Assembly (NCBI RefSeq): GCF_000018105.1
Contig: NC_009928.1
Location: 180,001-212,000 of the forward strand
Source of the DNA: Acaryochloris marina MBIC11017
GTDB taxonomy: Bacteria > Cyanobacteriota > Cyanobacteriia > Thermosynechococcales > Thermosynechococcaceae
DNA length: 32,000 bases
Direction of reading: 5' to 3'
Below, piece by piece: positions 2,200 to 26,147 of this stretch (its first letter is position 1; each line of letters opens with the position of its first letter). The translations under genes and the position numbers were made by a program. Below the pieces are notes generated by a model. It was not told the DNA's origin, did no database searches, and saw only the letters and a list, made by a program, of their open reading frames with translations.

Positions 2200-2727
2200 A
2201 ATGAACTACCCCGCTGCAAGCAGACGGGATATCGTTTCAAAAGAGCTGTAGCTGCTGATCATTTCTATGCAGTTGCATGTATTCCTTACCCTGAACTTTT
2301 ACATATTTCTTGATCATCTCTTCATCGCCATGCTTGCCTACTGTACTGGCAAAATAACCATCACTCCAAAATTCTCCGCCCCACAACTGTTGCTTTACAT
2401 GAGGACAACGCTTAAATACCTCACGCGACGTCAAACGCTTTAACATCTTCACTATCTTGGTCACGCTGTATGTTCGGACTGACTGAATTAAAAAGTGTAC
2501 ATGGTCTTTGTCGACACCTATTTCGATAAACTTCACCTCATAACGATTCTCTATATCCATACAAATGTTGCGAAGCACTTCATCCACGCTCTCATCAAAG
2601 ATGGCACGTCTATATTTTGCAGGAAACACTAAGTGATATAGCAATACGCTTACGTTATGACTCTTATGGATATACTCACTCATTCCTCGATCTTACGCTG
2701 CAAGCAGCGGGGAATGGCCCCTCAGAG
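2200..2727 (-). mobile_element. IS200/IS605-family element (tnpA only)
   Basis: tnpA is flanked by subterminal hairpins: CCCCGCTG-CAAG-CAGACGGG at about 2208-2229 and CGCTG-CAAG-CAGCG at about 2696-2709. The flanking DNA belongs to two different transposase relics. Confidence 0.85.
2237..2683 (-). CDS. tnpA: IS200/IS605-family Y1 (HUH) transposase TnpA
   Basis: 148 aa with an HUH motif (DKDHVHFLIQ) and a C-terminal catalytic Tyr region (WSDGYFASTVG). The ORF is intact. Confidence 0.93.
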   Translation of the reverse strand: MSEYIHKSHNVSVLLYHLVFPAKYRRAIFDESVDEVLRNICMDIENRYEVKFIEIGVDKDHVHFLIQSVRTYSVTKIVKMLKRLTSREVFKRCPHVKQQLWGGEFWSDGYFASTVGKHGDEEMIKKYVKVQGKEYMQLHRNDQQLQLF

Positions 2728-2949
2728 ATTCAAGTCGAGTTTTTATATCTGCCGTCCTACTCCCCCAAGTTGAATTTGGTTGAATATGTGATTTACCTAC
2801 TCCGCTTGCGATTTCTGCATCATCTCCCTCTAGGAACGACCCTGACACAGATCAAACAACAGCTCCATGAGTTCTTTGCTGCTAACCAGTTTCTATCGGC
2901 TGAACAAGTTCAAAACAACCTGAATTTTATATTTTCACTTGTTCCATAA
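2728..2949 (+). pseudogene. IS630/Tc1-mariner-type transposase C-terminal relic
   Basis: Reads ...IQVEFLYLPSYSPKLNLVEYVIYLL..., matching the LPPYSPELNPIE signature of IS630 DDE transposases. There is no N-terminal part, and it starts at the IS200 boundary. Confidence 0.65.
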
Positions 2950-2978
2950 TCTTATAGCCGGAAGGGAGTAATCCAATT

Positions 2979-4082
2979 TTATGCTTTTAGATACTGCTTA
3001 TGCTTGAAGTATGCTTTACATGCTACAGATCTAAAATTATACAAAATACCATACCTAGATTCCGCTAAATTGCTATTTTCTAAGCTGATTTTCCCCTCTT
3101 TTGAAATTTGACTAGGTTTATAGGTAGATGCTTGCTTTGGTTTTATGCTTGGGACTTGATTAGATTTATAGGTAGATGCTTGCTTTGGTTTTATGCTTGG
3201 GACTTGATTAGATTTATAGGTAGATGCTTGCTTTGGTTTAATACTTGGGACTTGATTAGATTTATAGGTAGATGCTTGCTTTGGTTTGATACTTGGGACT
3301 TGATTAGGTTTATAAGTAGATGCTTGCTTTGGTTTTATGCTTGGGACTTGATTAGATTTATAGGTAGATGCTTGCTTTGGTTTTATGCTTGGAATTTCAT
3401 TTGAATTATTTTTAGAAGTTTGAAGAGTAAGGCCAGGGAGAGTGTTTGTGCTAGCTGATGAGGTATTCTTTTCTTGAGCAACAGCCCTAATAGGTTGCAT
3501 CTGCTTCTGAGGTAAGTTGATAATACCTAAGGAAAATAGAAGCGCAAAACATGAAATAATTAGACTAAAGGTACTAACCCCAAGTGACCAAGTCCATCTT
3601 TTTTCTAATTCTCCTTCAAAATTTGTAGATTTATTGTTCATATCATTAGATGAAAAATCATTAGAGAAATAGATATTAGACCATTCGCATTGATCTAATA
3701 TCTTTTCAATTTTTCCTGCATTAGAAAGTTTATGCATATAGATTTTAGAATCGCTTATTCCAAATAAACTTAGGTTTAAGAGTAGATACTCATCAACTTG
3801 TTGGATATTAGATAAGAGATAACTCCATGTTTCTTGGCTTGATAGTTTAGGAATCAAGGGTTTATCAGTATTATTTATGCATTCAATAGTTGTGTTTTGT
3901 TTGCCATATGTCAAGTTAATTGCACCAATATACGTGCCAGGAAATGAAGTTTTTGAAATATTTTTAATATTTATAGTAATATCTTTAGGATATATTTTAT
4001 CTTTAGAATTCTCCAAAATATTTTGTAGACTATTAGAATTATTTGGATTGAATGTAGTTGTTACAAGAAGATTATATTCCAT
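2979..4082 (-). CDS. Single-pass membrane protein with seven tandem 16-aa repeats (AT-rich island)
   Basis: The ATG at 4082 is preceded by GAGGA; the track start at 4085 is TTG. A hydrophobic segment reads WSLGVSTFSLIISCFALLFSLGIINLP. It is followed by seven copies of SNQVPSIKPKQASTYK. Confidence 0.75.
   Translation of the reverse strand: MEYNLLVTTTFNPNNSNSLQNILENSKDKIYPKDITINIKNISKTSFPGTYIGAINLTYGKQNTTIECINNTDKPLIPKLSSQETWSYLLSNIQQVDEYLLLNLSLFGISDSKIYMHKLSNAGKIEKILDQCEWSNIYFSNDFSSNDMNNKSTNFEGELEKRWTWSLGVSTFSLIISCFALLFSLGIINLPQKQMQPIRAVAQEKNTSSASTNTLPGLTLQTSKNNSNEIPSIKPKQASTYKSNQVPSIKPKQASTYKPNQVPSIKPKQASTYKSNQVPSIKPKQASTYKSNQVPSIKPKQASTYKSNQVPSIKPKQASTYKPSQISKEGKISLENSNLAESRYGILYNFRSVACKAYFKHKQYLKA
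3105..3392. repeat. Six near-identical 48-bp tandem repeats, inside CDS 2979-4082
   Basis: The unit is GACTTGATTAGATTTATAGGTAGATGCTTGCTTTGGTTTTATGCTTGG. Unit starts are 3105, 3153, 3201, 3249, 3297 and 3345, with few substitutions per unit. Confidence 0.95.
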
Positions 4083-4234
4083 CAAAAAAATTTCCTCGAA
4101 ACATTTTATAAATAATTTTTCTATTTATCTTTTAGAAATTTATAACGATCTATTTAAGTTTAAAACCTGGATTATGGTAGCTCTTAAGATATAAATGAAT
4201 TCAAAATCCTGATATTCAAACTTTATTGATCAAT

Positions 4235-4453
4235 TCAAAAGAAACCTTGCTCTGCAATTGAGTCAGCTACAACAGCATCTGGATTTATTGGAACATCTGT
4301 CATATGAATAACTAGTTCGCCCGTTTCTGGGTCAAAAATTAATTGTTGATCGCCTAAGTTACTCTCATTGAATGCAACATCTTTAAAATACTGCTGAACT
4401 TCTTGGTTACTATTTTGACTTTTTTTTGAATTTCTCGATGCTTTCTCATTCAT
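4235..4453 (-). CDS. Hypothetical small protein (72 aa from ATG 4453; 77 aa from TTG 4468)
   Basis: Open frame in the AT-rich island. It is paralogous to the ORF at 4713-4955: ..EVQQYFKDV..DQQLIFDPETGELVIH..DAVVADSIA versus ..EVQQYLMDM..DQRLIFDTGTGKLVIQ..DSVITDSIA. Confidence 0.55.
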   Translation of the reverse strand: MNEKASRNSKKSQNSNQEVQQYFKDVAFNESNLGDQQLIFDPETGELVIHMTDVPINPDAVVADSIAEQGFF

Positions 4454-4622
4454 GGTAATTATATTCAATTATTTATTTCAAACTTTTCAGAACAATGTAT
4501 TGTTTCAGATAATGGCATGACTTATATTTTGAAATTTTCATTCTTCATTAAATCCGAATTTAGCCTAGATTAATGATATGCAGATCATGAAATATATATT
4601 CTTTCATAGAATATTTTTTAAA

Positions 4623-4663
4623 ATTTTAAACTGAATATACCTAAATTATATTCAGTTTAAAAT
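4623..4663. repeat. Perfect 17-bp inverted repeat (hairpin) between the two small paralogs
   Basis: ATTTTAAACTGAATATA (4623-4639), 7-nt loop, TATATTCAGTTTAAAAT (4647-4663), followed by TATCTTTTT on the plus strand. Confidence 0.6.
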
Positions 4664-4712
4664 TATCTTTTTACACAATTATTTTCATTTTTTATGGCTA
4701 AAACACAAAAAA

Positions 4713-4955
4713 TCATAGTTTTGCAATCGAATCAGTAATAACAGAATCTAGACTTATAGGACTAACTTTTTGCTGGATTACGAGTTTTCCTGTTCCTGTA
4801 TCAAAAATTAAGCGCTGATCTTCTGAGTTAGTCTCTTCTTTGAACATATCCATTAGATACTGTTGAACCTCTGGAGTATTAGATACCTCAACTTGAAGTA
4901 CATTCTCCTATTCGTCCTCCTCAGTTAGTTGTTTAAAATCGTTAGAATTGTTCAT
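4713..4955 (-). pseudogene. Paralog of the 4235-4453 small gene, with an in-frame TAG
   Basis: Hand translation gives MNNSNDFKQLTEEDE, then TAG at 4908-4910, then ENVLQVEVSNTPEVQQYLMDMFKEETNSEDQRLIFDTGTGKLVIQQKVSPISLDSVITDSIAKL and a stop at 4713-4715. A shorter product from an internal Met is possible. Confidence 0.5.
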
Positions 4956-5372
4956 ATCTCTAAACTCTTTATTTGCTTAATGTGAAAAATTGCAAATACA
5001 ATGAATCTACCTTAATAGGTAGATTTCATGTCATAAAAAAGATTTATTAAAACGATTTAGCCTCCTAGTTGAGATCTTTCAATCTCAGATACTTAACTCC
5101 CACTATGTATCATACAAAATCCAAGCACTAGCATAGTATTTATTAATTTTTTAGATATGTCCGGATTTTACCAATGGAGCATGAAAAGTAATTAGAATTT
5201 TATAAACTAGACTAAAAGTCTTAAAATTAAATATATTATGTGGGCAATTAACTTTGATTCTCTTGATAATGTTAAATATTTTGAACCACTAGTCATTCGT
5301 CTAATCAAATTGAGCCAGTTGTCAGTATTCTCAAAACTCCTTAATCTATGAGCAACTAAGAACACCGAATAA

Positions 5373-7394
5373 ATGAAGATTTTACTAGTTGAAGATCAAG
5401 AAAATATTATTAACGAATTACTAAATATTTTTAGTCAATATAACTATATTGTTGATGTTGTTAGAGATGGAGAATTAGGTTGGAAGTATAGTACAGCATT
5501 TGAATATGATTTGATAATTATTGATATCATAACCCCAAAAATTGATGGAATATCTCTATGCAAAAAACTTCGCACTGAAGGATATTTCACTCCTATTCTA
5601 TTACTAACAGAACAAGGAAGTTTAACAGCAAAGATAAATGGACTAGATGCTGGTGCTGATGATTATTTAGTTCAACCATATCATCAAGCAGAATTAATAT
5701 CTCGCATCCGAGCTTTGATAAGACGATGTAGTACTAGTCCTTTACCAATTTTGAGTTGGGAAAATTTATTATTGAATCAAAGTACCTGTGAGGTAAATTA
5801 CGATGAACTACCTCTCAAATTAACAAATACTGAGTATGAATTGTTGGCATTATTGATGAGAGATAGTCAGCATGTATTCAGTTGTGAAGAATTAATTGAT
5901 CGACTATGGTCTTCGGAAGATTTTCCATCTCCAGCTACAGTTAGATCACATATTCGAAGATTACGCCAGAAACTATCAGAAGCTGGCGCTCCTAAAGATT
6001 TAATATCTACTGTTCATGGGAGAGGTTATTACTTAAAACCTCTCATAGATAATATTAATAATAGAGATATACCTCATCGAAACAGTAAAGAGAACAATAA
6101 TGAAGTCATTATTGTTAATAAATCAGCTATTCTAGAGCCAGAGTCAGTTAATGCCAAAAATAAATACCCTAAGTCAAGCTATGTATATCAAGAATATTTA
6201 AATTATTTAAATGAACTCTGGTCTAAAGAGAAACAGGGTTATATGAATTCTATAGAAAAGTTATCTCAATCTATTCTTAGCTTAAACTCTTTTAAAGATA
6301 AAGGTAAAAATACAACAAATATTCTAAATATCTATCATCAATTAATTGGAGCCTTTGGTATATTTGGATTATCTTATGCAATGCGAATCCTGAATAACTG
6401 CAAAAACATAATTATAAGTGAATCTACTCCATTCAATGATTCTATATATTTGGAAATTCATGAATCACTAACTCAATTAAAGCAGCATCTTTCCAATAAT
6501 AAAATTATTGAAAATAATGCGAATTTTAATTCATATTTAAAACTATTTATAGTGACTAATAAAGCTATTAATCATGGTCAAAGGATTATTCAGCTGGGAA
6601 TAGAACTTAGGGTAATTATTCATTTTATAATTTTATCTGACGAGGGCTGTGGAAACGATATTACTTCTGGCGTTGATCAATCCAAACCTGAAATCAATAT
6701 TTTATCTCCTGATGTAGTTTTGATATTATTATCAGATAAATTGGCTATTTCAAATAATGAAAATTTATCTATAATTGATAACAAAAACGTAATTGATATT
6801 TACAATTTTTTTGTGAATTCCCATCCTTTTGTAGAGTTTTATATCTCAAGTGAATTCAAGGTAAGACAAATCTACAAGTTAAAAAAGCAAAAGGATATAT
6901 TTACCATTGTAGATACTAGTATATTTAGTCAACTTACGCCAGCGATCACCCAAATCGCTGAGTTACTTGATCATCTCAAAGAAGTTCATGTCATAATTAT
7001 CGACTCTGATGAAGACTGGTTATGCTCAATTCCAAATGTTATTAAGCAAAAGGGATATACAGCTACCACTCTTGCAGATGATTCTCAATTTTGGACAGTG
7101 TTAGAAGTAATTCATCCTGATGCATTAATTATTGAATATAAAAGCCCACAGATTGATAGCACTGAAATATGTAGGTTAATTCGTAATCATCCTTACTGGA
7201 ACTACCTACCAATATTGTTACTTGTAGATGGTTTGAAAGTTGAAAATCAAAATCTTCTATACCAAGTAGGTGCCGATGATATTTTATTTAAACCTATCTC
7301 TAGTAATGAGTTAGCAAATAGAATTAGTCATAGACTAAAACGTATGCAGGATTATGCTGAACGTTTTAGATTGTATGCAAACTATTTCAGTTAA
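5373..7394 (+). CDS. RcaC-architecture response regulator: REC, OmpR-type winged helix, HPt-like, C-terminal pseudo-receiver
   Basis: 673 aa. The N-terminal REC has an acceptor Asp at 51 (YDLIIIDIITPKIDG) and K at about 100 (YLVQP). The wHTH reads LTNTEYELLALL...VRSHIRRLRQKL...TVHGRGYYL. An HPt-like His at 322 lies in NIYHQLIGAFGIFG. The C-terminal REC-like domain (about 538-655) has Glu588 at the acceptor position (DALIIEYKSPQIDSTE). Confidence 0.85.
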   Translation: MKILLVEDQENIINELLNIFSQYNYIVDVVRDGELGWKYSTAFEYDLIIIDIITPKIDGISLCKKLRTEGYFTPILLLTEQGSLTAKINGLDAGADDYLVQPYHQAELISRIRALIRRCSTSPLPILSWENLLLNQSTCEVNYDELPLKLTNTEYELLALLMRDSQHVFSCEELIDRLWSSEDFPSPATVRSHIRRLRQKLSEAGAPKDLISTVHGRGYYLKPLIDNINNRDIPHRNSKENNNEVIIVNKSAILEPESVNAKNKYPKSSYVYQEYLNYLNELWSKEKQGYMNSIEKLSQSILSLNSFKDKGKNTTNILNIYHQLIGAFGIFGLSYAMRILNNCKNIIISESTPFNDSIYLEIHESLTQLKQHLSNNKIIENNANFNSYLKLFIVTNKAINHGQRIIQLGIELRVIIHFIILSDEGCGNDITSGVDQSKPEINILSPDVVLILLSDKLAISNNENLSIIDNKNVIDIYNFFVNSHPFVEFYISSEFKVRQIYKLKKQKDIFTIVDTSIFSQLTPAITQIAELLDHLKEVHVIIIDSDEDWLCSIPNVIKQKGYTATTLADDSQFWTVLEVIHPDALIIEYKSPQIDSTEICRLIRNHPYWNYLPILLLVDGLKVENQNLLYQVGADDILFKPISSNELANRISHRLKRMQDYAERFRLYANYFS

Positions 7395-9745: not shown

Positions 9746-11047
9746 CGCCTGACACATCTCTGTATCGTTACCCCTATAAGATTTTGCACTGTAACGAGCG
9801 AATTCGAGAAAATCAGATTTTATCGTAGTACTTCTTTTAAGCTTTCTTGGAGGCAAAACACGGTTGTGGGTCATTCATGAGCAGGGGAATTGGCATTAAC
9901 AACTGGCGTCCTTTATTAACGACCCCCTTGAGCCATCGCAGTCCAATTTTGAGATAACTGATTCCCCGTCGCCAATGCGGATCCACTTGCTCACGCAGTC
10001 CTTCAATTTGAACAGCCATCCCGTGAGTGGTGCTGTAAAGCAGTGCTACTGCAGCGACCAAGTAAAGTCGTTCAAGGGCATCAGCACAGCGAATTTTTGA
10101 GTCTTCTAGTTCAAAAGCTCCAGATTTGCTATCGAGAAATAATTCTTCCACCCGAAACCTCAAAGCGTATTGCCACAAGGTCTGTAGCGTGGGTGATTCA
10201 TCCGTAATCACCGCCCATGGCTCTTTCACACCTCGAATATTAGCCAGCACCAGATTGCACCGACATACACCATCTTCCCAAAGACCCACATTGCGATAGA
10301 GGATTGCTTCACCTTTCGATGGCCACAATCTACGGACTTCCCTTGGGCATCGACGTGGACCATGGAGGATAACATCGCAAGGGATACGTAGACAGTAATG
10401 CCAACGGCTCTGCTGTAACCAGCTCATCAGTTGATGGTTCGCAAACCCACGATCTGCCAACAGCATCACATCTGGATGCTTTCGTAAGAACCAACGGGCT
10501 CGACGCAAGAGGGGTTGATATTCCTCGAAGCCGACAGCCGCACTTTTGTGCGCTAACACCAGCCATAAAAATGGCACAGCTCTGCCACAGCAGACGACCG
10601 ATAGATGAATCATGCAATATTGATTCCACAAAACCGTTGTATCCAATGCCAGATAAAGACGATGGGATTACCGGTCTTTGAGCGCTAGCAGGACCAGAGG
10701 CACATAAGTTTGTTGATATCAATACGTTTATTGGATATGAATCGATGCCAGCGACGCTCGACACTCTGGGCTTTTTTTGCTCGACTCGGAACATAAGATT
10801 CCCAGGCAGACAAGCTTAATTGACCACTACAAATTAATGCACTCAGCATCCACGCTAGGGCAATGATATGACGCAGGTCTCGATAATGGCTGTATTGACG
10901 CAGAAAGGAGAAAAGTTGACTGTAAATTGCAGTGGAATGAGATATGTGGACATAGCTAATTTTTAGTGGAATCTAGCTTCACATGTTCTCTTCACTTTCT
11001 CTTGAAAGTCTTATAGATCAAGCCTCTATGGCACTTATGTCAGGCAG
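9746..11047 (-). mobile_element. IS4-family insertion sequence, degraded
   Basis: The end ...CTTATGTCAGGCAG (11034-11047) recurs at 17441-17454. The opposite end carries an imperfect inverted match, CGCCTGACACAT, at about 9746-9757. Confidence 0.7.
9837..10953 (-). pseudogene. IS4-family DDE transposase with frameshifts and an internal stop
   Basis: The N-terminal piece YSQLFSFLRQYSHYRDLRHIIALAWMLSALICSGQLSLSAWESYVPSRAKKAQSVERRWHRF is in a different frame from 9837-10646 (LALDTTVLWNQYCMIHLSVV...LADRGFANHQLMSWL...LFLDSKSGAFELEDS). The ATG at 10953 is out of frame with the conserved frame. Confidence 0.8.
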
Positions 11048-11377
11048 ACAGTTTGAAACAGTCCTGACTCTGGAGCTTCATAAACTTCAGTTTTTTAAAA
11101 TGTGTGTTGCTAAGGCTTATTCTTGCATTGTCAAAATAAGCCTATTGATCCTTTCTCAGGATTGCAGAAGCTTTGACTTTTACCGCTAATCAAAACTAAC
11201 TCAACCTCAGATTAGTTAAGTATCCTGAGGCTTTATCAAGCTTGGTCATGATTATAGCTTTGTTCTATTCCTCATTTGAATCTATTTCAATATTTATTAA
11301 CTGATGATCAAGTTTTAATTGTAAGAGGGAATAGATGGGAAAACAAAACTGTAACTCAAAAAACAGGAGAAATAATC

Positions 11378-11773
11378 ATGTCTGCAAAAACATTGATTCC
11401 TCAAATTCCTTTGCTTGACATAGGAGATTGGTGTTCTTTTAATGTCCCATATGGCCAGGGAAAATTTAAACATAAAGGTATCCAAGTTCAATTTAAAGGA
11501 TATGAGTCAGTAGCAATCATGAGTGTTGTTATGTGGCCAGCATCTTATGATATTAATCTTGCCTTGACTCATAAAGAAAAAGAAAAAATGGTAACACTTT
11601 ACAGGCATACTGATATTTCGGAACCTCCTTGCTTATCGAATGAACAAATGCTTGACATAGCTAAACAAGTAGGGTCAGATTTGCTAGAAGAGCTAGTCAA
11701 ACAATGCCTTACTGAAGATCTTGAGAAAAGGTATCCATGGATTCATAATCCTGATTTTTCTGTAGGAGAATAG
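11378..11773 (+). CDS. Hypothetical protein (131 aa), AT-rich block
   Basis: The ATG at 11378 is preceded by AGGAGA (11365-11370). No motif recognised. Confidence 0.55.
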   Translation: MSAKTLIPQIPLLDIGDWCSFNVPYGQGKFKHKGIQVQFKGYESVAIMSVVMWPASYDINLALTHKEKEKMVTLYRHTDISEPPCLSNEQMLDIAKQVGSDLLEELVKQCLTEDLEKRYPWIHNPDFSVGE

Positions 11774-12453
11774 AGATGCTGATTGCCTGAGCGGATACAA
11801 ACCATCAATCGATCGATGATTTGATTGACACTTTGGGAAAGGTTATTACTTTTTCTCTAATCGTTCACATTTGTGGCTCTCATCAATATCTATAGCTGCA
11901 ATAATTCATTAGTTATCTCAATTCATACCTTTCACGTACAATCTCAGAACAAGAACAATATTCCTTAACCACATCTCGAGATATTGAGGAAATTCGCCAA
12001 AACTATAACAGCGATGCAAAGAAAATGCGGGTTAAAGCCGCCAAAGCTAGAATTTCAGCTCGACGCAAAGCGGAACGAGATGCTCGGGAAAGAGCGGCAA
12101 TTGAGAAGATTCCACCGGAGCATCAGTATGTGCCTGATCAGGCCAGACAACCATCCTGATCGGATAACCTGAGACATACACAGATACTCTTTCCATCAGT
12201 CAACCCAGTAATACTCGCAGCTATTCTAGGTGTCCTAGTACAGAGTATTCTCATCTAAGTTCATCTCATCTGAGTCATTGCCCAGGTTTTCGACCTCGGG
12301 GTACTTGAGTTGACACTGTTGGCGAATTATTCCGAGATGATCTCAGAAGGCTGAAATAGCTTCTAAAAATTGATGCAGTTAGTCTTTCGTAGATTTAGGT
12401 ATGGTACTGCTAAAACTCAAAATCAATCAGGCGCTGCTCAATGACGGGATGAC

Positions 12454-13159
12454 TCACGCAGGAATAGGTACTTCCCCAAACTTGAGATAGTGGATCAATA
12501 GTCGAATTGAATGCTTGAGCATGTCCACCGACTTTGAATAACATAAAGTCTTACGATGAAGCCGTGCCAAGTAATGTCGTAAACGCGTGTTTTCTCCCTC
12601 TACTCGTGTCATGTAGGTCTTGCTAACAATCTGGTCACCCTCTGGGATAAAGCCTGGATAGACGGGATTGCCATCACTGACCCAGAAGAAACATTACCAA
12701 CAGACGATTGCTTGCCATAACGGTCGAAAGGTCTCAGCACTATGGTCACCCACAACCCAGCCTAGAATGCCGGCAATGGTCTATTAAGAGGATTTAGATT
12801 CTCGTAGCCTTTATTAAATAAGCATTTGAGCCTTCTATCTCCACTTACTTTGAAGACTATAGACCAAAAGGGTTTTGAACTTGTAGATCCTCTTAAGAAA
12901 CCAGTTCCAGAATGCCAGGGTGAAAATGATCCACCACTGTCCAAATCCAGACCTTGTTGCGTTTTTTGCCCACAAAGGTTTCAAGTTCATCTAATTCTCC
13001 GACCTGTGGGATATCGTCGGGTTCATAAGCATCAGGTAATAGAACTCCAACTTGTTGAACCCAATGAATCACAGTGGTATGAGCAACGCCTATGACTCGT
13101 TCGATACCTTCAACCCCATTCCATTGACATACATTCTCAGGCAGAGTCGTTTCGTCCAA
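12454..13159 (-). pseudogene. IS1 InsB-like transposase, interrupted by a MITE and an in-frame TAA
   Basis: Reads ...VWIWTVVDHFHPGIL, then a 137-bp insert, then GWVVGDHSAETFRPLWQAIVCW, TAA, CFFWVSDGNPVYPGFIPEGDQIVSKTYMTRVEGENTRLRHYLARLHRKTLCYSKS...HYLKF. Confidence 0.85.
12772..12908. mobile_element. 137-bp MITE with terminal inverted repeats and an 8-bp target-site duplication
   Basis: The left end is GGCAATGGTCTATTAAGAGGATTTAGA. The reverse complement of the right end is GGAACTGGTTTCTTAAGAGGATCTACA, about 21/27 matching. It is flanked by AGAATGCC at 12764-12771 and 12909-12916. Confidence 0.8.
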
Positions 13160-13287
13160 TCACTGTATTCACGCTTTGAGCAAGTTGAAAGAAACTGTCG
13201 TCCACAGGTCACACAGATATGATTTTGTTTACCTCGACGATGCCCATTCTTATGGATATGTTGACCACCACACTCTGGACACTTCAT
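13090..13287 (-). CDS. insA: IS1 InsA-like protein (zinc-finger plus HTH N-terminal ORF)
   Basis: Begins MKCPECGGQHIHKNGHRRGKQNHICVTCGRQF, a CxxC...CxxC arrangement typical of InsA. Confidence 0.75.
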   Translation of the reverse strand: MKCPECGGQHIHKNGHRRGKQNHICVTCGRQFLSTCSKREYSDWTKRLCLRMYVNGMGLKVSNES

Positions 13288-13374
13288 ACAGATTCCTCAT
13301 GATGTTCGAAATAGTCATGAGGTTATCCTGACGCAATAAAATTCATCCCGTCATTGAGCAACGCCACAAAACTG

Positions 13375-13407
13375 TTCACCTCCAACATTCGTAGACTCTG
13401 AGGTGAA
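13375..13407 (-). terminator. Hairpin plus T-run downstream of the E1-like gene
   Basis: TTCACCTC (13375-13382), 17-nt loop, GAGGTGAA (13400-13407). On the minus strand the stem is followed by CAGTTTTGT. It lies between the E1-like stop (13489) and the IS1 end (13365). Confidence 0.5.
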
Positions 13408-13488
13408 GATGATAAATGAAGAAAAAGAATAAGCTTATATTGAGAAGAGGAATTATGTTATTAGCTTATAAATTATAATTCATGTATT

Positions 13489-14769
13489 TCATTTAAAAAT
13501 ATTGTCATCGCTTAAGTCAGATTCTTCTATCTCAGCACATACAGGACAATAGGGATTGCGTTCAATTTTAGCGCCATACCAACGTAAAATTGAGGGCTTT
13601 TGAGAACCATATTCCATTATCTGATAGTTTGAATAAGCAAGTTCTCGGCGATTTGCCCAAATATAAAAATCTGCTATTAGGTCTTTTTCAAGTGAAGTTA
13701 ATCCACTTTCTTTGTTTTTAGATAATTCTAACAAAGCAAGCTTAACAATCATATTAGAAATAGGTTGAATGTCGGAAGATAACCCAACTTGTATCGTTGC
13801 TTCAACCCTGTCATCTGAGACATAGTCAGGCATTTCATTGCGGGCTTGCTTAAAATGAGAAACTTCATCTGGAAAGCTATTGGCGAATTCCTTCGTAAAC
13901 ACACATGCTAAACATGGGCCAAGTCTTGGACGAACTCTTAAAACATCCCCACCTACGGCTCTAGTAATTGCTCTTCCAAAAATAGTTGTTATAGAATGAT
14001 CCAAGGCAAACTGATTAATATTAAATCGACTTCTGTTATTATCAGTTGCACCAATAATTAAGTTGCATTGTTTAAGTTCTTTACTAACTTTAGACAAATC
14101 AGTATTAATATCAACCTCATAGGTCTCAACTTCAATGTATGGATTTTTAGCTAACAGTAAATCTTTAATTGCTTTAGTTTTGAATCGCCCTAAATCATTA
14201 ATACCACAAATATGTCTCGATATATTTGATAATTCTAGTCTATCAAAATCAACTAAAATAAATTTTCCAACGCCTGCTTTAGCTAACTCTATCGCTACTG
14301 ATGATCCTCCACTCCCTAACCCAATTAATCCTACATTAGAAGCATTAAGTATCGAGGTCTCCAAGAGACCTTTACTACGAGAGTAAATTTCTGAAATTCC
14401 AGGCACAATTTTTATAATTCCTTCAAAAATTTCTGCTTCAATTACTATAAAGACTCTAAATGCCTGTTCATTAGCGAATAATATAATGATTCTTGAATCA
14501 TCATGGTCATTAATGTCAGTATCCCGGTAAGTTTTTTTAGCAAATTTTATACACTTTTCTTTATCAGAAATATCATCAAAAATTCTTGCAACAGCTCTTT
14601 TTGGGGTACCTGAGAAGTGAATCTTAGGTAAATCACTATAAATATGATAGACTTCTCCTTCATCCAAACAGTAAGAAAATAGATTGAGACAATCAGATTT
14701 TGAGTTCTTTAGCTTATTAAAGATTTCACTTATTTCATCATTAAATATATATATTAAAGGTAATTCCAT
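13489..14769 (-). CDS. E1/ThiF/MoeB-superfamily adenylyltransferase with an unassigned ~125-aa N-terminal domain
   Basis: 426 aa. Core motifs are YSR (129-131), GLGSGG (150-155), VDFD (173-176), NISRH (182-186) and GATDN (240-244). Two CxxC pairs are C286/C289 and C408/C411, with no Cys between residues 290 and 407. AT-rich codon usage. Confidence 0.85.
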   Translation of the reverse strand: MELPLIYIFNDEISEIFNKLKNSKSDCLNLFSYCLDEGEVYHIYSDLPKIHFSGTPKRAVARIFDDISDKEKCIKFAKKTYRDTDINDHDDSRIIILFANEQAFRVFIVIEAEIFEGIIKIVPGISEIYSRSKGLLETSILNASNVGLIGLGSGGSSVAIELAKAGVGKFILVDFDRLELSNISRHICGINDLGRFKTKAIKDLLLAKNPYIEVETYEVDINTDLSKVSKELKQCNLIIGATDNNRSRFNINQFALDHSITTIFGRAITRAVGGDVLRVRPRLGPCLACVFTKEFANSFPDEVSHFKQARNEMPDYVSDDRVEATIQVGLSSDIQPISNMIVKLALLELSKNKESGLTSLEKDLIADFYIWANRRELAYSNYQIMEYGSQKPSILRWYGAKIERNPYCPVCAEIEESDLSDDNIFK

Positions 14770-15013
14770 TATAATATTCTCAAAACGAAAATTTTAAAAA
14801 ACTAATTGGATCTAATTTGATTTCAAAAATCTAAATAAATATCTAAAATCATTGAGCCTGAAGTTTTTTCTAAATATCATAGATAAGCCAATAAATACAT
14901 TCTATCTAGTAGGAAAAATTCTACATACTTAGAGATTTAGACTAAAAAATTCTATACAGACTCAACTTATCATATTAAATAATATTATATTTTATTTGAT
15001 AGAACTGATTAAA

Positions 15014-15667
15014 TTATGAATCATTATCCATATTACACAATTCTAAAAAAGCAAGACGGGCTCGTGCACTCACTGCAAAATCAGGATCCTTGCTTTCAAT
15101 AGATCTAACATGAGATTTAATCTTAAATTTTATTTGTTCATTTTCATCTGTCATTAACCTATATTGCAACTGTAAACCCACAATTGCTGAATATCTCACA
15201 GCCCATTCCTCATCTTTCTCGCTAATGGAAAGTAGAGTTTCTAAAACTTCTAATTCTCGAGGATCTAAAGAATTTTTTGGCTTTATTGGCCACTGTATCT
15301 CACCCAAACCTTTCGCAGCAGTGCGCCTTACACTAGGAGAGAAATCTGTGGTCGCGGCCTTTAATAAGACATCTACACTCCTTGGATCACCAATACCCGC
15401 TAATGCTCTTATTGCCCAAGCTTTTGCAGTGTAGTTTTGATTATTGATTTCCTCCATGAGTGCAGGTACAGATTCTTTACCAATTTTTACTAGACCTTTA
15501 ACAGCTGCAACTGCTGCACCTGGATTATTGTAACTAAGCACAGAAATCAAAGTTGGTATTGATTCGTCACTACATGCTTTTGATAAACTTGATACTGCAA
15601 CTAGTAATTTAATTGAAGAATCTGCCTTTTCTACATCATTTATCAAGTCAGAAATTGATTTGCTCAT
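15014..15667 (-). CDS. HEAT-repeat protein of the PBS-lyase (CpcE/NblB-like) repeat type
   Basis: 217 aa with consecutive repeats, for example NPGAAVAAVKGLVKIGKESVPALMEEI, TAKAWAIRALAGIGDPRSVDVLLKAA, SPSVRRTAAKGLGEI and EWAVRYSAIVGL. Confidence 0.8.
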   Translation of the reverse strand: MSKSISDLINDVEKADSSIKLLVAVSSLSKACSDESIPTLISVLSYNNPGAAVAAVKGLVKIGKESVPALMEEINNQNYTAKAWAIRALAGIGDPRSVDVLLKAATTDFSPSVRRTAAKGLGEIQWPIKPKNSLDPRELEVLETLLSISEKDEEWAVRYSAIVGLQLQYRLMTDENEQIKFKIKSHVRSIESKDPDFAVSARARLAFLELCNMDNDS

Positions 15668-15821
15668 GTCTTATTTTTTTACTAACTTAAATCATTTGAA
15701 TTTCAAAATTTAAAATTTTTCTTTTCCTTGTTTCCATAAGCAGACAAAAAAGATATTTTGTATTTTACAATCTATTATAGTTGCAAACATGTTTTTTACT
15801 AATAATAGATAAAATCAGATA

Positions 15822-15878
15822 CAATATTATCAAAACGACCTTTGAAGTTGTCCCGCAAAAGTCGTTTTGATAATATTG
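15822..15878. promoter_or_regulatory. Perfect 18-bp inverted repeat with a 21-nt spacer, in the divergent intergenic region
   Basis: CAATATTATCAAAACGAC (15822-15839) pairs with GTCGTTTTGATAATATTG (15861-15878). It lies upstream of the HEAT gene near the edge of the AT-rich block. Confidence 0.45.
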
Positions 15879-15908
15879 ATAACCTATTTGTTAACAGTGG
15901 CATCAAAA

Positions 15909-15936
15909 TGCCGACCTAAATGAAGCTTGGTCGGCA
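15909..15936 (-). terminator. Terminator-like hairpin (8-bp stem) followed by TTTTGATG on the minus strand
   Basis: TGCCGACC (15909-15916), 12-nt loop, GGTCGGCA (15929-15936). The plus strand upstream reads CATCAAAA. No minus-strand gene upstream of it was found. Confidence 0.3.
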
Positions 15937-16086
15937 GAATTGAAATCAATATTTAAGGGCTGGCAATATAAATCTTTGCCAACAATATTTATAGGCTTGT
16001 TTCTATGATCTCCTAAAAAGGTGAACTTCGCTAGAGGGGAAATACCCACAGTACTTTGATCAATGAGATATTGCCCTCGATCTATT

Positions 16087-16905
16087 ATGAAGCTAGCCTT
16101 TCAAGATGCCCCAGATGGCTTACTCTCTCTCTCTGCCACCAAACTCCTCACTTATAAACGATGTCCCCAGGCGTACAGCTTCAAGTACGAACGGGGTCTA
16201 ACCTCACCCTCAGCTTTTGGTTCTCCTAAATTTGGTAATGCCCTGCATGGTGCTCTGGCTGACATCTATCGGGATTGGAACTACGCTTATCCCCTTCCCT
16301 CTCTGGATTGGTTTGCCATTTGTTGGCAACAGCATACTGGAGAACTAAGCTCAACTCAAATCCATGAGGGCTGGATGGCCTTGCAGCTCTACTATGAAAG
16401 GTATATGGCTCCTCTCCCCCAGATCCGAAAACCGCTTGGTGTAGAGGGCAAAATCAAGGCTAACTTTCAAGTTAATAACATCGAATTCTCTCTTGCCGGT
16501 CACTATGACCGCCTGGATTACTTTGGGGATGGATTGGAGCTAATCGACTACAAAACGAGCAAAATAGTTAAACCATCGGACGGAATTGATTGGCAGCTCG
16601 GACTCTATAACCTCATTCTAGAACAGACCTATCACCAAGCACTTCAGCGCTTGAGCCTAATTTATCTTCGACAGGGCCAGAGAATCACTTATGACGTAAC
16701 CCCGGAACATCACCGGCAAGTCCGGGAGCTGATCGGGGACTTGGCAGTGAAGCTGAGGATAGATCAGGAGTGGGAGCCAGAAGTGGGAGGACATTGCGTT
16801 CGCTGTGGGTATCAAAAATATTGCCCTGCGAAGTCAGAGAAGCTAGAGCCTATACCGGAAGGGGCTAAGGAGGGGCGGCAAATGCAGTTAGTTTTGGGTC
16901 TTTAA
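16087..16905 (+). CDS. PD-(D/E)XK nuclease, Cas4/RecB-like, with a four-Cys cluster
   Basis: Motifs: LSATKLLTYKRCPQAY, GNALHGAL, HYDRLDY, LELIDYKTSK, QLGLYNL and a C-terminal CVRCGYQKYC (C...CxxCx5C pattern). I chose the start at 16087 by homology with the paralog at the window end; the track start is 16063. Confidence 0.85.
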   Translation: MKLAFQDAPDGLLSLSATKLLTYKRCPQAYSFKYERGLTSPSAFGSPKFGNALHGALADIYRDWNYAYPLPSLDWFAICWQQHTGELSSTQIHEGWMALQLYYERYMAPLPQIRKPLGVEGKIKANFQVNNIEFSLAGHYDRLDYFGDGLELIDYKTSKIVKPSDGIDWQLGLYNLILEQTYHQALQRLSLIYLRQGQRITYDVTPEHHRQVRELIGDLAVKLRIDQEWEPEVGGHCVRCGYQKYCPAKSEKLEPIPEGAKEGRQMQLVLGL

Positions 16906-17229
16906 ATCCCAGAAGTATTTTTGGTATGCAACGATAAAGCTGTTGATAGGACCAATCTGCAGCTTTAATCATTGGGCAGTGGGTTGCTTCAGACAGGCTT
17001 TCCTTTCTTATTCTTGGAATAATCGATGAGTCTAAACTCCAATAGGGTGAAAATACTGTTAGTGGGTCTATCTCACTGCCTAATGGCTAGGATGGCGTTA
17101 AAGCCTTGATGCTAAAAGATTTGGAGGATTGGGGTTCCTGATCGTTGGAGGGAGAGAGACTAGGCAACACTACTGATTAGAACACCAATGGGGAGGATTC
17201 TAAAACATCCGTGTGATGAATGATAAGGA

Positions 17230-23121: not shown

Positions 23122-24018
23122 GAGGTTGTTTGAGAAGTTAGGGAAGCTCTCAAGAGAGTAATCTGTCAATGTAGAAATTTCGACAGGGCCTTGAGAGCAA
23201 TGCCTACAGCTTACGCTAGCGACCTAACAGCAGAGCAATGGGAATTACTCGAGCCCCTGATTCCCGCTGCTAAACCTGGAGGTAGACCTCGCACCACTGA
23301 TATGCTCAGTGTTCTCAATGCCATTTTTTATCTCGTGGTTACGGGTTGTCAGTGGAGACAGCTACCTCATGATTTTCCCTGTTGGTCAACGGTCTATAGC
23401 TATTTTCGAAGGTGGCGCGATGATGGGACTTGGAGTCAAATCAATGAACATCTACGCATGCAAGTGCGGGTGAGTGAAGACCGTCATCCCAGTCCCAGTG
23501 CCGCTATCTGCGATGCTCAATCGGTCAAAGTCGGCAATCCTCGGTGTCACTTGATTGGGTTTGATGGTGGAAAACAGATTAAGGGGCGTAAACGTCATGT
23601 GCTCGTTGATACTTTAGGGCTGGTTCTGATGGTGATAGTCACTGCTGCCAATATCTCTGACCAACGAGGGGCCAAAATACTGTTTTGGAAAGCTCGACGC
23701 CAAGGTGCGAGTTTGTCCCGTCTAGTTCGGATATGGGCCGATGCTGGCTATCAAGGACAAGCTTTGATGAAGTGGGTAATGGACCGTTTTCAATATGTCT
23801 TGGAAGTGATCAAACGCTCAGATCATCTAGCGGGGTTTCAGGTTATTCCCAAACGATGGATTGTAGAACGGACGTTTGGGTGGTTACTGTGGTCTCGCCG
23901 ACTTAATAAAGATTATGAGGTTTTGACCAGAACAGCTGAAGCCCTTGTTTATGTGGCAATGATTCGACTGATGCTTCGAAGGCTGGCGCAGGAGTACTAA
24001 AACTTCTCAAACAGCCTC
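23122..24018 (+). mobile_element. Intact IS5-family insertion sequence with a TAA target duplication
   Basis: The inverted repeats GAGGTTGTTTGAGAAGTT (23122-) and AACTTCTCAAACAGCCTC (-24018) are each flanked by TAA (23119-23121 and 24019-24021). Confidence 0.85.
23200..24000 (+). CDS. IS5-family DDE transposase
   Basis: Contains MPTAYASDLTAEQWELLEPLIP...GRPR...CQWRQLPHDFP..STVYSYFRRWRDDGTW...DAGYQGQ...KRWIVERTFGWL. The frame is uninterrupted. Confidence 0.9.
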   Translation: MPTAYASDLTAEQWELLEPLIPAAKPGGRPRTTDMLSVLNAIFYLVVTGCQWRQLPHDFPCWSTVYSYFRRWRDDGTWSQINEHLRMQVRVSEDRHPSPSAAICDAQSVKVGNPRCHLIGFDGGKQIKGRKRHVLVDTLGLVLMVIVTAANISDQRGAKILFWKARRQGASLSRLVRIWADAGYQGQALMKWVMDRFQYVLEVIKRSDHLAGFQVIPKRWIVERTFGWLLWSRRLNKDYEVLTRTAEALVYVAMIRLMLRRLAQEY

Positions 24019-24621: not shown

Positions 24622-25218
24622 ATGGCAATTATCACTGTCACAGGAAATAAAGGTGGCGTAGGAAAAAGTACTACTGCCGTTCATCTGGCGACTTATCTTA
24701 GCGATTTTGGTCAAACTCTGTTAGTCGATGGAGATCCTAATCGAACAGCTATTAAGTGGGCTGAACGTGGATCACTCCCATTCAAAGTTGCTGATGAACG
24801 TCAAGCTGTTAAGCTCGCTAGGGAAGTTGAGCATGTGGTTTTTGATACTCCTGCAAGACCTGAATCAAATGATTTGCTTGAGCTTGCCAAGGGATGTGAT
24901 CTACTTATTCTTCCTACTACGCCTGATCTAGTGAGTCTAGAGCCAATGCTTGAGACGGCAGCAGTACTTAACACTACAAATTACTTTTTCCTTATAACCA
25001 TTGTCCCGTCCTACCCCAGTAAAAGAGGCGAAGACATGAAAAATGATCTAAGAACAGGAAAAATACCAGTATTCAACACAACAGTTAGAATGTCTGATGG
25101 GTTTAAAACGGCAGCAGAAGAAGGAGTACCTGTAAGGCAAGTGAAAGACTCTCGGAAACGAGCTGCTTGGAAAGATTATGAAGCACTTGGTAGTGAAATC
25201 ATGGAGTTACTGAGTTGA
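24622..25218 (+). CDS. parA: ParA/Soj-family partition ATPase
   Basis: Deviant Walker A, MAIITVTGNKGGVGKSTTAVHLA. 198 aa. Its stop overlaps the parB start. Confidence 0.9.
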   Translation: MAIITVTGNKGGVGKSTTAVHLATYLSDFGQTLLVDGDPNRTAIKWAERGSLPFKVADERQAVKLAREVEHVVFDTPARPESNDLLELAKGCDLLILPTTPDLVSLEPMLETAAVLNTTNYFFLITIVPSYPSKRGEDMKNDLRTGKIPVFNTTVRMSDGFKTAAEEGVPVRQVKDSRKRAAWKDYEALGSEIMELLS

Positions 25219-26147
25219 AGAAAGGCAGATTTACCGAAGTAATCTCTGAAGCAAAACTTGCTCAGAAGCTAGATTCTGAGCAAATCGAGGATCAAAGAAG
25301 TGGAAATATTCCTCTCACAAAAATTAGCCTACCTAAGCAACAGCCCAGACGATATTTTGATCCTGCAAAGATGCAAGATCTCATTCTATCCATTTCTAAA
25401 AATGGGATCTTAGAACCGCTCCTAGTTCGACCTTTACCTAGAAGCAAATATGAACTTGTGGCGGGCGAGCGACGTTTGCGAGCTGCAAAAGCTTTAAAGC
25501 TAAAAGAAGTACCTGCTGTTATTCGAAAGTTAGATGACGATCAAGCATTACAACTTGCGATCATTGAAAACCTACAACGTGAAGATCTCAACCCAGTTGA
25601 AGAAACTGAGGCTATCATTGGTCTCATTTCCATACAGGTCAAAATAAACACTAGTGAGGTTCCTTCTCTTCTATACAAAATGCAGAATGAGGAGAAGGGG
25701 AAAATTACCCCAAGCGTTTGGGGTAATCCTAATGGAGATGCAATATTAGAAGTATTTGAGAATTTAGGGCTGAATTGGAAATCGTTTGTAAAAACTCGAC
25801 TACCTTTACTTAAGCTTCCTTCTGACGTTCTAGAGTCTCTTATGCAGGGGCAAATAGAATACACAAAAGCGACAGAAATAAGTCGCATTAAAGATGAAAG
25901 TCAACGGAAGGAGTTTTTATCAGATGCCATCGATAAAGATCTGTCACTAAAAGAGATAAAGACACATATCAAGGCGCTAAAGACTAACAAAGAAGCGGTA
26001 GGTATCGTTCTAAAGTCTAGATTCTCAAATACATATACTAGTTTCAAAAAATCAAAAGTCTGGGATAATCCCAAAAAACAAAAGCAACTTGAAAAACTGA
26101 TACTAGAGTTTGAAACTAAAATCGCTAAGCTAATTGAGGATGATTAA
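25215..26147 (+). CDS. parB: ParB-family partition protein
   Basis: ParB N-terminal motifs ILEPLLVRPL and YELVAGERRLRAAKAL. The TTG start overlaps the parA stop (TTGA). Confidence 0.85.
   Translation: MKKGRFTEVISEAKLAQKLDSEQIEDQRSGNIPLTKISLPKQQPRRYFDPAKMQDLILSISKNGILEPLLVRPLPRSKYELVAGERRLRAAKALKLKEVPAVIRKLDDDQALQLAIIENLQREDLNPVEETEAIIGLISIQVKINTSEVPSLLYKMQNEEKGKITPSVWGNPNGDAILEVFENLGLNWKSFVKTRLPLLKLPSDVLESLMQGQIEYTKATEISRIKDESQRKEFLSDAIDKDLSLKEIKTHIKALKTNKEAVGIVLKSRFSNTYTSFKKSKVWDNPKKQKQLEKLILEFETKIAKLIEDD

Follow-up and report, generated by a model that had tools for sequence, protein, structure and literature searches.

A 32,000-nucleotide stretch of Acaryochloris marina MBIC11017 (contig NC_009928.1, positions 180,001 to 212,000 of the forward strand, hereafter called the window) carries two neighbouring genes on its minus strand, one encoding an E1-like activating enzyme and the other a HEAT-repeat protein. 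The E1-like protein of 426 amino acids (aa) is probably the E1 of a four-component ubiquitination-like system, made up of a JAB peptidase, an E2-like protein, a small protein referred to here as the tag, and the E1 itself, which is scattered in this organism and next to which the HEAT gene lies only incidentally. This reading departs from a preliminary description of the same DNA, in which the HEAT protein was considered a possible adaptor or target of the E1. The features discussed below are collected in Table 1.

The E1 family and its partner genes

The E1 locus scan, performed with one genome per species, returned 80 loci, while the neighbourhood survey covered 81, and all loci were searched for partners with iterated hidden Markov models (HMMs) of JAB, E2 and tag. 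All three partners adjoin the E1 gene in 65 of the 81 loci, almost always in the order JAB, E2, tag, E1, and most or all of the other loci lie on contigs that end early. The E1 loci are distributed over at least six phyla, with representatives in Cyanobacteria, Caldisericota (Cryosericum), Bacteroidota, Actinomycetota, Verrucomicrobiota and Planctomycetota, among others. In Nostoc and Halomicronema, for example, the E1 homologue is the last of four genes; the first of them encodes a JAMM-motif protein of about 314 aa, and the second and third encode proteins of about 151 aa and 63-70 aa. A HEAT gene was not found near E1 at any of the 81 loci. Furthermore, about 700 JAB clusters (90% identity) match at E <= 1e-10. 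One JAB homologue (P0294; 45% identity over roughly half of the query) is assigned to a coral, Stylophora pistillata, where its contig measures 713 kb; it may represent contamination or transfer into a eukaryote.

The partner families were also characterized individually. The JAB family (about 310-390 aa) keeps the complete JAMM motif (E24, H85-x-H87, S96 and D99), matches Cap3-type JAB models of CBASS (anti-phage signalling based on cyclic oligonucleotides) and scores just under the Prok-JAB cut-off; the PADLOC CBASS models for JAB and E1-E2 were the best library matches. In the E2 family (about 150 aa), C104 is present in at least 95% of 70 sequences within an I-C-H-Y context, and H91, located 13 residues before it, occurs in at least 95% of the same 70 sequences and in 17/17 of a diverse subset. 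When compared to the PDB, the E2 profile retrieved only chains with the UBC/RWD fold (FANCL, UBE2T, the RWD domain of RNF25 and E2-25K), although these matches were weak (best E = 0.0016). The alignment of the tag (60-90 aa) shows conserved LxFDPxTGELV and DGF[F/A] motifs, the latter being followed by a variable tail of 0-17 residues or, in several phyla, by the E1 itself as a fusion. In terms of sequence, this is the pattern of a putative modifier precursor that would need trimming. In an AlphaFold2 model of a natural tag-E1 fusion, the tag begins with a helix, continues with a beta-hairpin and closes with a second, short helix, which is not the element order of a beta-grasp. Pfam and NCBIfam hold no model for either the tag or the E2. 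At the Nostoc and Cuspidothrix loci (L001 and L011), a free-standing tag gene is found in addition to an E1-fused tag, resulting in two tag copies per operon.

Clustering of the neighbours within 5 kb revealed lineage-specific gene sets only and no extra universal partner. In filamentous cyanobacteria the neighbours include NB-ARC-WD40, TPR-CHAT and AAA_16 (STAND-like) proteins, while Cryosericum species present a stable flanking gene order with DnaJ, TPR and PP2C-like phosphatase genes. Directly downstream of E1 and on the same strand, a ClpB-like double-AAA+ gene is found in 11 Bacteroidales loci (among L057-L083) and a 575-aa AAA gene in 8 Flavobacterium loci (L072, L075, L078 and L081 included). 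The downstream AAA+ genes suggest that the system may be connected with the unfolding or degradation of proteins, and a role of the system in defence or in protein quality control is possible.

Several details of the preliminary description were confirmed for the E1 of the window. The 426-aa open reading frame (ORF) is present as given, and so are the motifs YSR (residues 129-131), GLGSGG (149-154), VDFD (173-176), NISRH (182-186) and GATDN (240-244), most of which are invariant or near-invariant in the family alignment. The two CxxC pairs are located at 286/289 and 408/411; residues 290-407 between them contain no cysteine, and there is no crossover-loop Cys, as had been claimed. With 115 bits (cut-off 28) and E = 3.9e-33, the match to PF00899 (ThiF) places the protein in the E1/ThiF/MoeB superfamily. 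GLGSGG, R185 and D243, corresponding to the Gly-rich ATP loop, the Arg finger and the Mg-binding Asp, are invariant in the family; invariant columns also include H42, R131, C286, C289, Y316 and C408, and the E1 of the window keeps all of them. By analogy with MoeB and ThiF, the CxxC pairs probably form a zinc site. The conservation pattern also points to C188 (near-invariant, in an RHxCG motif), S304 (near-invariant) and Y316 (invariant) as candidate sites for an E1-bound intermediate. An acidic C-terminal tail (...DDNIFK, ...DDDFFG, ...ADGGFFG) is found in many members of the E1 family, most of them cyanobacterial, and also in the E1 of the window (13489-13530, minus strand); this tail resembles the ...EDGFF end of the tag and might be a pseudo-substrate or docking motif.

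The protein is distinct from the housekeeping enzymes MoeB, ThiF, TcdA and MoeZ, as had been supposed, since it scores far under the NCBIfam equivalog cut-offs (92 bits against 275 for ThiF, 75 against 449 for MoeB and 36 against 304 for TcdA). An E1 of the PRTRC or conjugation-module type was also considered and rejected (TIGR03736, 15.9 bits against a cut-off of 145). Full-length homologues, N-terminal region included, share 45-58% identity at 96-100% coverage. Compared to its counterpart in a sister Acaryochloris-like strain, the E1 gene has a ratio of non-synonymous to synonymous substitution rates (dN/dS) of 0.16.

The region preceding the YSR motif had been left without assignment in the preliminary description. 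Indeed, the Pfam ThiF match begins at residue 141, leaving about 125-140 residues without a sequence match. An AlphaFold2 model of residues 1-129 (predicted local distance difference test score 88.9) was compared to the PDB with Foldseek, and the leading matches were nearly all MPN proteins (AF2198, BRCC36 with KIAA0157, Rpn11 with Rpn8, and CSN subunits), with a probability of 0.97-1.0 for AF2198, BRCC36 and Rpn11, a best E of 5e-4 and template-modelling (TM) scores of 0.44-0.52. Cap2 and the N-terminal domain of Atg7 were also among the matches. When the domain was examined for the JAMM motif E...HxHx7Sx2D, only H42 and S53 were found to be kept, the second His being replaced by Tyr and the Asp being lost. 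We thus read the N-terminal 125 residues as a dead MPN domain, predicted to be catalytically inactive, which agrees with an inactive JAB, one of the options that had been put forward for this region.

Dispersed components in Acaryochloris marina

In the window the E1 gene does not follow JAB, E2 and tag genes, and cpcF, the HEAT gene, is found in their place immediately upstream. The preliminary description had accordingly reported no ubiquitin-like, E2 or JAB partner, which holds locally, as tblastn and HMM searches of the 32-kb window detected no JAB or E2 homologue. However, the window does contain two tag genes, located about 9 kb from E1 in a second AT-rich block (2979-7394; 29.7% guanine-cytosine (GC) content), and JAB and E2 are encoded elsewhere in the organism. 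Tag gene 1 was supported by tblastn (E = 5e-15) and by HMM (E = 2e-22), and it was called on 9 other Acaryochloris contigs. A query with a cyanobacterial JAB identified an A. marina JAB (P0293, 307 aa), for which the longest contig is 273,121 bp; the E1 of the window is 100% identical to an A. marina protein whose longest contig has the same length. The JAMM motif of P0293 and the Cys of the adjoining E2 are both intact. These two genes belong to another AT-rich block (about 30% GC), observed on short contigs with P0293, which also carries cpcE (274 aa, above the NCBI CpcE cut-off) and cpcT and apparently lies on the same 273-kb replicon as the window. The IS630-like end at window positions 2972..2727 also occurs after E2 in that block. 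The system is therefore complete and intact but dispersed in the A. marina plasmid, all components being present, and the earlier suggestion of a degenerate conjugation module is not sustained.

The HEAT protein, present as a 217-aa ORF as previously claimed, scores 264.3 bits against the NCBIfam model NF058515 for CpcF, above the cut-off of 220. CpcF is the beta subunit of the phycocyanobilin lyase acting on phycocyanin alpha-Cys84. The protein resembles CpcE/CpcF lyases in exceeding this curated cut-off and in that the same organism has a cpcE above its own cut-off. It differs from them in that this cpcF is parted from cpcE, is AT-rich and is under relaxed constraint between strains, and in that identity to other CpcF proteins, including the closest relatives outside Acaryochloris, reaches no more than 50-53%. 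The best relative outside Acaryochloris (52% identity) is the cpcF of a cpcB-cpcA-linker-cpcE-cpcF operon (cpcBA-C-D-E-F). Between two Acaryochloris strains the dN/dS of the HEAT gene is 0.91, calculated from small numbers (5 synonymous and 16 non-synonymous changes). The E1 is thus under purifying selection, while the HEAT gene is not.

The genes cpcE and cpcF, normally adjacent, are separated here, one adjoining JAB and E2 and the other adjoining E1. This is most simply explained if one imported AT-rich island, comprising lyase genes and the tagging system, was scrambled by rearrangement mediated by insertion sequences (IS). The adjacency of HEAT and E1, found only in Acaryochloris, is likely a local result of such rearrangement beside an ordinary phycocyanin-lyase gene.

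As regards the immediate surroundings, a 7.4-kb contig (L088) from a second Acaryochloris-like strain matches window positions 17018..13366 with 95% identity and then continues straight into 12308..11053. Since it runs from 13366 to 12308 without an IS1, the IS1 copy in the window is strain-specific; the adjoining IS1 end noticed earlier was confirmed by a pair of inverted repeats, each of 23 bp (12430-12452 and 13343-13365). A gene for a PD-(D/E)XK (Cas4-like) nuclease and a 165-aa ORF flank cpcF and E1 in both strains. The low GC content attributed to the block was borne out (31.5% for 13366-15900), but the flanks are at about 44% and not at about 50% as had been estimated. The hairpin with a T-run at 13375-13407 has an 8-bp stem, a 17-nt loop and a free energy of -10.9 kcal/mol, which corresponds to chance level when compared to shuffled sequences (z = -0.09), and a terminator scan made no call there; an intrinsic terminator 3' of E1 was thus rejected. 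Promoter-like sites in the cpcF-E1 spacer are no more numerous than in shuffled sequence, and the sigma-70-like site listed for it is a consensus match only. Upstream of cpcF, a segment of about 57 bp (15822-15878) is inverted in the sister contig and forms a near-perfect palindrome at the edge of the AT-rich block. The nuclease gene (16063-16905, plus strand) is divergent from cpcF, has a normal GC content and is without nearby cas genes.

Additional features were noted in the rest of the window. Directly downstream of the tag genes lies an AT-rich 368-aa ORF (2979-4085, minus strand) without a family match. For its product a membrane segment is predicted, and a unit of 16 residues occurs seven times in tandem (NQVPSIKPKQASTYKS); the ORF may encode a target or represent unrelated island cargo. 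Divergent from the tag genes is an AT-rich gene for a 673-aa OmpR-type response regulator (5373-7394, plus strand) with receiver, DNA-binding and C-terminal second receiver domains, and this divergent arrangement is conserved on other Acaryochloris contigs. The window is dense in insertion sequences of the IS1-family, IS4-type DDE, IS630-like, IS200-like and IS5-type kinds (12430-13365; 9837-10794; 1827-2972; 23191-24000) and carries a serine recombinase gene at 1265-1690. ParA and ParB genes at 24622-26147, along with several transposase genes, are consistent with a plasmid. A megablast search of PLSDB with the cassette gave no match and a protein-mode search with the E1 gave only two distant matches on Bradyrhizobium plasmids, while other parts of the window match only other Acaryochloris plasmids.

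Table 1. Location of the E1 gene, its domains, the tag genes and associated features (window coordinates unless stated otherwise)
Feature	Coordinates	Strand	Remarks
E1-like activating enzyme	13489..14769	-	426 aa; family member usually closing a JAB - E2 - tag - E1 operon
E1 N-terminal domain (about residues 1-125)	14395..14769	-	Predicted MPN/JAB-like fold, degenerate JAMM (H42-x-Y44 ... S53)
ThiF-type adenylation domain	13489..14394	-	Two CxxC pairs, no Cys between; acidic C-terminal tail ...DDNIFK
Tag gene 1	4235-4468	-	72 aa from ATG 4453 or 77 aa from TTG 4468; ends ...DSIAEQGFF-stop
Tag gene 2	4713-4853	-	Apparently damaged: in-frame stop upstream; early end ...DSIAKL, without GF[F/A]
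HEAT-repeat protein, CpcF-type phycocyanobilin lyase beta subunit	15014..15667	-	217 aa; outside the tagging system
cpcF-E1 spacer	14770..15013	-	244 bp, 20% GC; sigma-70-like site (10/12 matches) ending at the E1 start codon
AT-rich block with cpcF and E1	13366..16000		Between the PD-(D/E)XK nuclease gene and IS1; 95% identical in a second Acaryochloris-like strain
IS1-family element abutting the 3' side of E1	12430..13365		Strain-specific insertion
AT-rich block (about 30% GC) outside the window	L099 1-4006		Order cpcE, cpcT, JAB, E2

Proposed reaction order and comparison with known systems

The tag would initially carry a variable C-terminal tail or be fused to the N-terminus of the E1, and the JAB peptidase would trim it at ...DGF[F/A]; the same peptidase may in addition undo the modification. 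Adenylation of the new C-terminus by the E1's ThiF domain would come next, after which the tag would move to the E2 cysteine and finally to a target. As the E1 has no crossover-loop Cys, the E2 could receive the tag straight from the adenylate or via another E1 residue. The dead MPN domain would perhaps serve to dock the tag or the active JAB, in a manner comparable to Rpn8 with Rpn11, although this is speculation. CBASS, Bil and Bub are the analogues from which we infer this reaction order (10.1101/2022.03.31.486616, PMC10557695, PMC11601596).

The full-length model of an E1 homologue matches Cap2, BubCD, UBA5, ThiF, MoeB and MccB in Foldseek, and it aligns with Cap2 and with the JAB-E1 fusion BubCD over 450-500 columns. 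The Bub type I system (6E/DUF6527; BubCD and BubAB; PMC11601596) is similar in having an MPN/JAB-type domain N-terminal to a ThiF-type E1, an E1 without a catalytic Cys and a modifier that can be a fusion needing cleavage, and BubCD ranks high among the fold matches of the whole chain, in the best group. However, the metal ligands (HxH...D) of the N-terminal MPN domain are missing here and a separate active JAB is encoded, whereas in Bub the JAB fused to the E1 is active. Moreover, the E2 has a near-invariant Cys (C104), whereas the Bub E2 is Cys-less with a Ser oxyester, and the modifier is without beta-grasp features. The Bub E1 itself uses a Tyr oxyester (PMC11601596). A DUF6527 protease, which Bub has, is not listed at the two Pfam-annotated loci (L001 and L003).

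Type II CBASS, with Cap2 (an E2-E1 fusion) and Cap3 (a JAB), likewise applies E1/E2/JAB chemistry to a substrate other than a beta-grasp protein (10.1101/2022.03.31.486616), and Cap2 was the top fold match. In contrast to CBASS, E1 and E2 (about 150 aa) are separate here, the N-terminus of the E1 is MPN-like and not an E2 domain, and the substrate is a dedicated tag of 60-90 aa instead of a CD-NTase. Neither a CD-NTase nor an effector was seen at the two Pfam-annotated loci or among the recurring neighbours, in which no search was aimed at them. The Bil system (BilABCD; 6C/6D) also has four separate components and a JAB that pre-processes the modifier (PMC10557695, PMC1779556). The Bil modifier, however, is a beta-grasp ubiquitin-like protein ending in Gly and its E1 has an IAD-AAD-CYS architecture, while a single adenylation domain without a Cys domain is found here and the modelled tag is a helix plus hairpin.

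None of the operon classes 6a-6e (Iyer et al. 2006), nor CBASS, Bil or Bub as described, fits the architecture observed. The characterised forms of these classes are Type II CBASS for 6b, Bil for 6C/6D and Bub for 6E, and NCBIfam holds a model named 6A-MBL. The ubiquitin-like domain fused to a Campylobacter ThiF (Iyer 2006) was considered as the same system but rejected, as it belongs to a different family. The four-gene architecture is apparently undescribed, as none was found in the literature, though an earlier bioinformatic mention is possible.

Alternative explanations and implications

It is very improbable that HEAT and E1 form a self-contained pair, in which the E1 adenylates the C-terminus of a peptide or protein and the HEAT protein serves as adaptor or target. 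The preliminary description had itself made the pairing depend on the two genes being neighbours in other genomes. The neighbourhood survey largely refutes the pairing: because none of the 81 homologous E1 loci has a HEAT gene nearby, HEAT and E1 are not a functional unit, and a general role of the HEAT protein as partner of the E1 is rejected. Adjacency on the same strand, a shared AT-rich composition and conservation of the arrangement in two Acaryochloris-like strains (DNA 95% identical) all speak for the pair, as does the cpcE adjoining JAB-E2 in the same organism, by which lyase genes flank both enzyme loci. On the other hand, the HEAT protein passes the CpcF cut-off and its nearest relative outside Acaryochloris is a genuine cpcF in a phycocyanin operon, the dN/dS values diverge (0.91 from only 21 substitutions, versus 0.16 for the E1), a 244-bp spacer separates the genes, and the E1 has other well-defined partners. 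We also see only a slim chance that the A. marina E1 is a decaying remnant, the orphan of a broken operon without current function. The canonical operon is indeed broken, with IS elements abutting both the E1 and the tag locus, but the E1 keeps every family-invariant residue and a dN/dS of 0.16. The second tag copy is damaged, while one tag gene is intact and the catalytic motifs of JAB and E2 are kept. Acaryochloris plasmids in PLSDB (at least MBIC10699, S15 and 'Moss Beach') have no E1 match at E <= 1e-30, whereas the longest contigs of JAB and E1 are of one length, 273,121 bp.

A pathway similar to that of ribosomally synthesised and post-translationally modified peptides (RiPPs) would explain the same genes without conjugation. 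In this case the small protein would be a precursor, the E1 would make a C-terminal acyl-adenylate as MccB and PaaA do, and the JAB would act as a maturation peptidase. We regard such a pathway as unlikely, although not negligibly so. When the sequence of the adenylation domain was compared to the PDB, PaaA and MccB were among the best matches, and the E1 resembles them in having no thioester or crossover-loop Cys. Like these two enzymes, the E1 carries an additional domain ahead of the adenylation domain, but this domain folds as an MPN domain and not as a peptide clamp or the winged helix of a RiPP recognition element; an N-terminal domain of the MccB/PaaA type, suggested earlier, is contradicted by the leading fold matches, of which nearly all are MPN/JAB proteins. 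For the whole chain, Cap2 and BubCD head the list of fold matches. The small protein, without beta-grasp features and with a conserved C-terminal motif followed by a variable tail, would suit a precursor, yet its conserved structured region of about 55 residues is far above the size of MccA, which is a heptapeptide. Furthermore, unlike MccB and PaaA, the E1 has constant E2 and JAB partners, the former with a near-invariant Cys and a near-invariant His. No exporter, immunity gene or other tailoring enzyme was noticed among the recurring neighbours, in a survey that included no screen aimed at them.

Several points also weigh against the four-component system as described here. Every step of the reaction order is inferred. 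The tag profile has no significant match to Pfam or to PDB sequences; as the tag shows neither a family match nor a sign of a beta-grasp, its conjugation is an analogy and not a demonstration. The cleavage site is ambiguous, as cleavage may follow either Gly or F[F/A]: within GF[F/A] strict invariance is limited to the Gly, but the reading frames of several tag genes end precisely with GFF or GFA. The MPN assignment is based on moderate fold scores only (TM about 0.45-0.5). An hhalign comparison of the N-terminal domain with the JAB of the system was not significant (probability 0.1), although this alignment places F-H42-x-Y44 ... P-S53-G over W-H85-x-H87 ... P-S96-G-G-D99 with identical spacing. 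The A. marina genes are not co-located, so that their co-expression would be an assumption. Finally, the presence of lyase genes beside both enzyme loci (cpcF-E1 and cpcE-cpcT-JAB-E2) leaves some room for a lineage-specific link.

Within the four-component system, it is possible, if rather doubtful at present, that the tag is a covalent modifier without a ubiquitin fold, which would be matured by a JAMM peptidase, activated by a Cys-less MPN-ThiF E1 and passed via a cysteine E2 to targets. If the tag is truly conjugated, E1-E2 chemistry would not be tied to beta-grasp modifiers, and the family would offer a compact system for studying how E1s without a catalytic cysteine pass their cargo to E2. 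Since a ClpB-like or other AAA+ gene follows the operon in many Bacteroidota, proteins carrying the tag could be destined to be unfolded or degraded. If this is true, the system would represent a third bacterial tagging route, beside Pup and the beta-grasp ubiquitin-like proteins.

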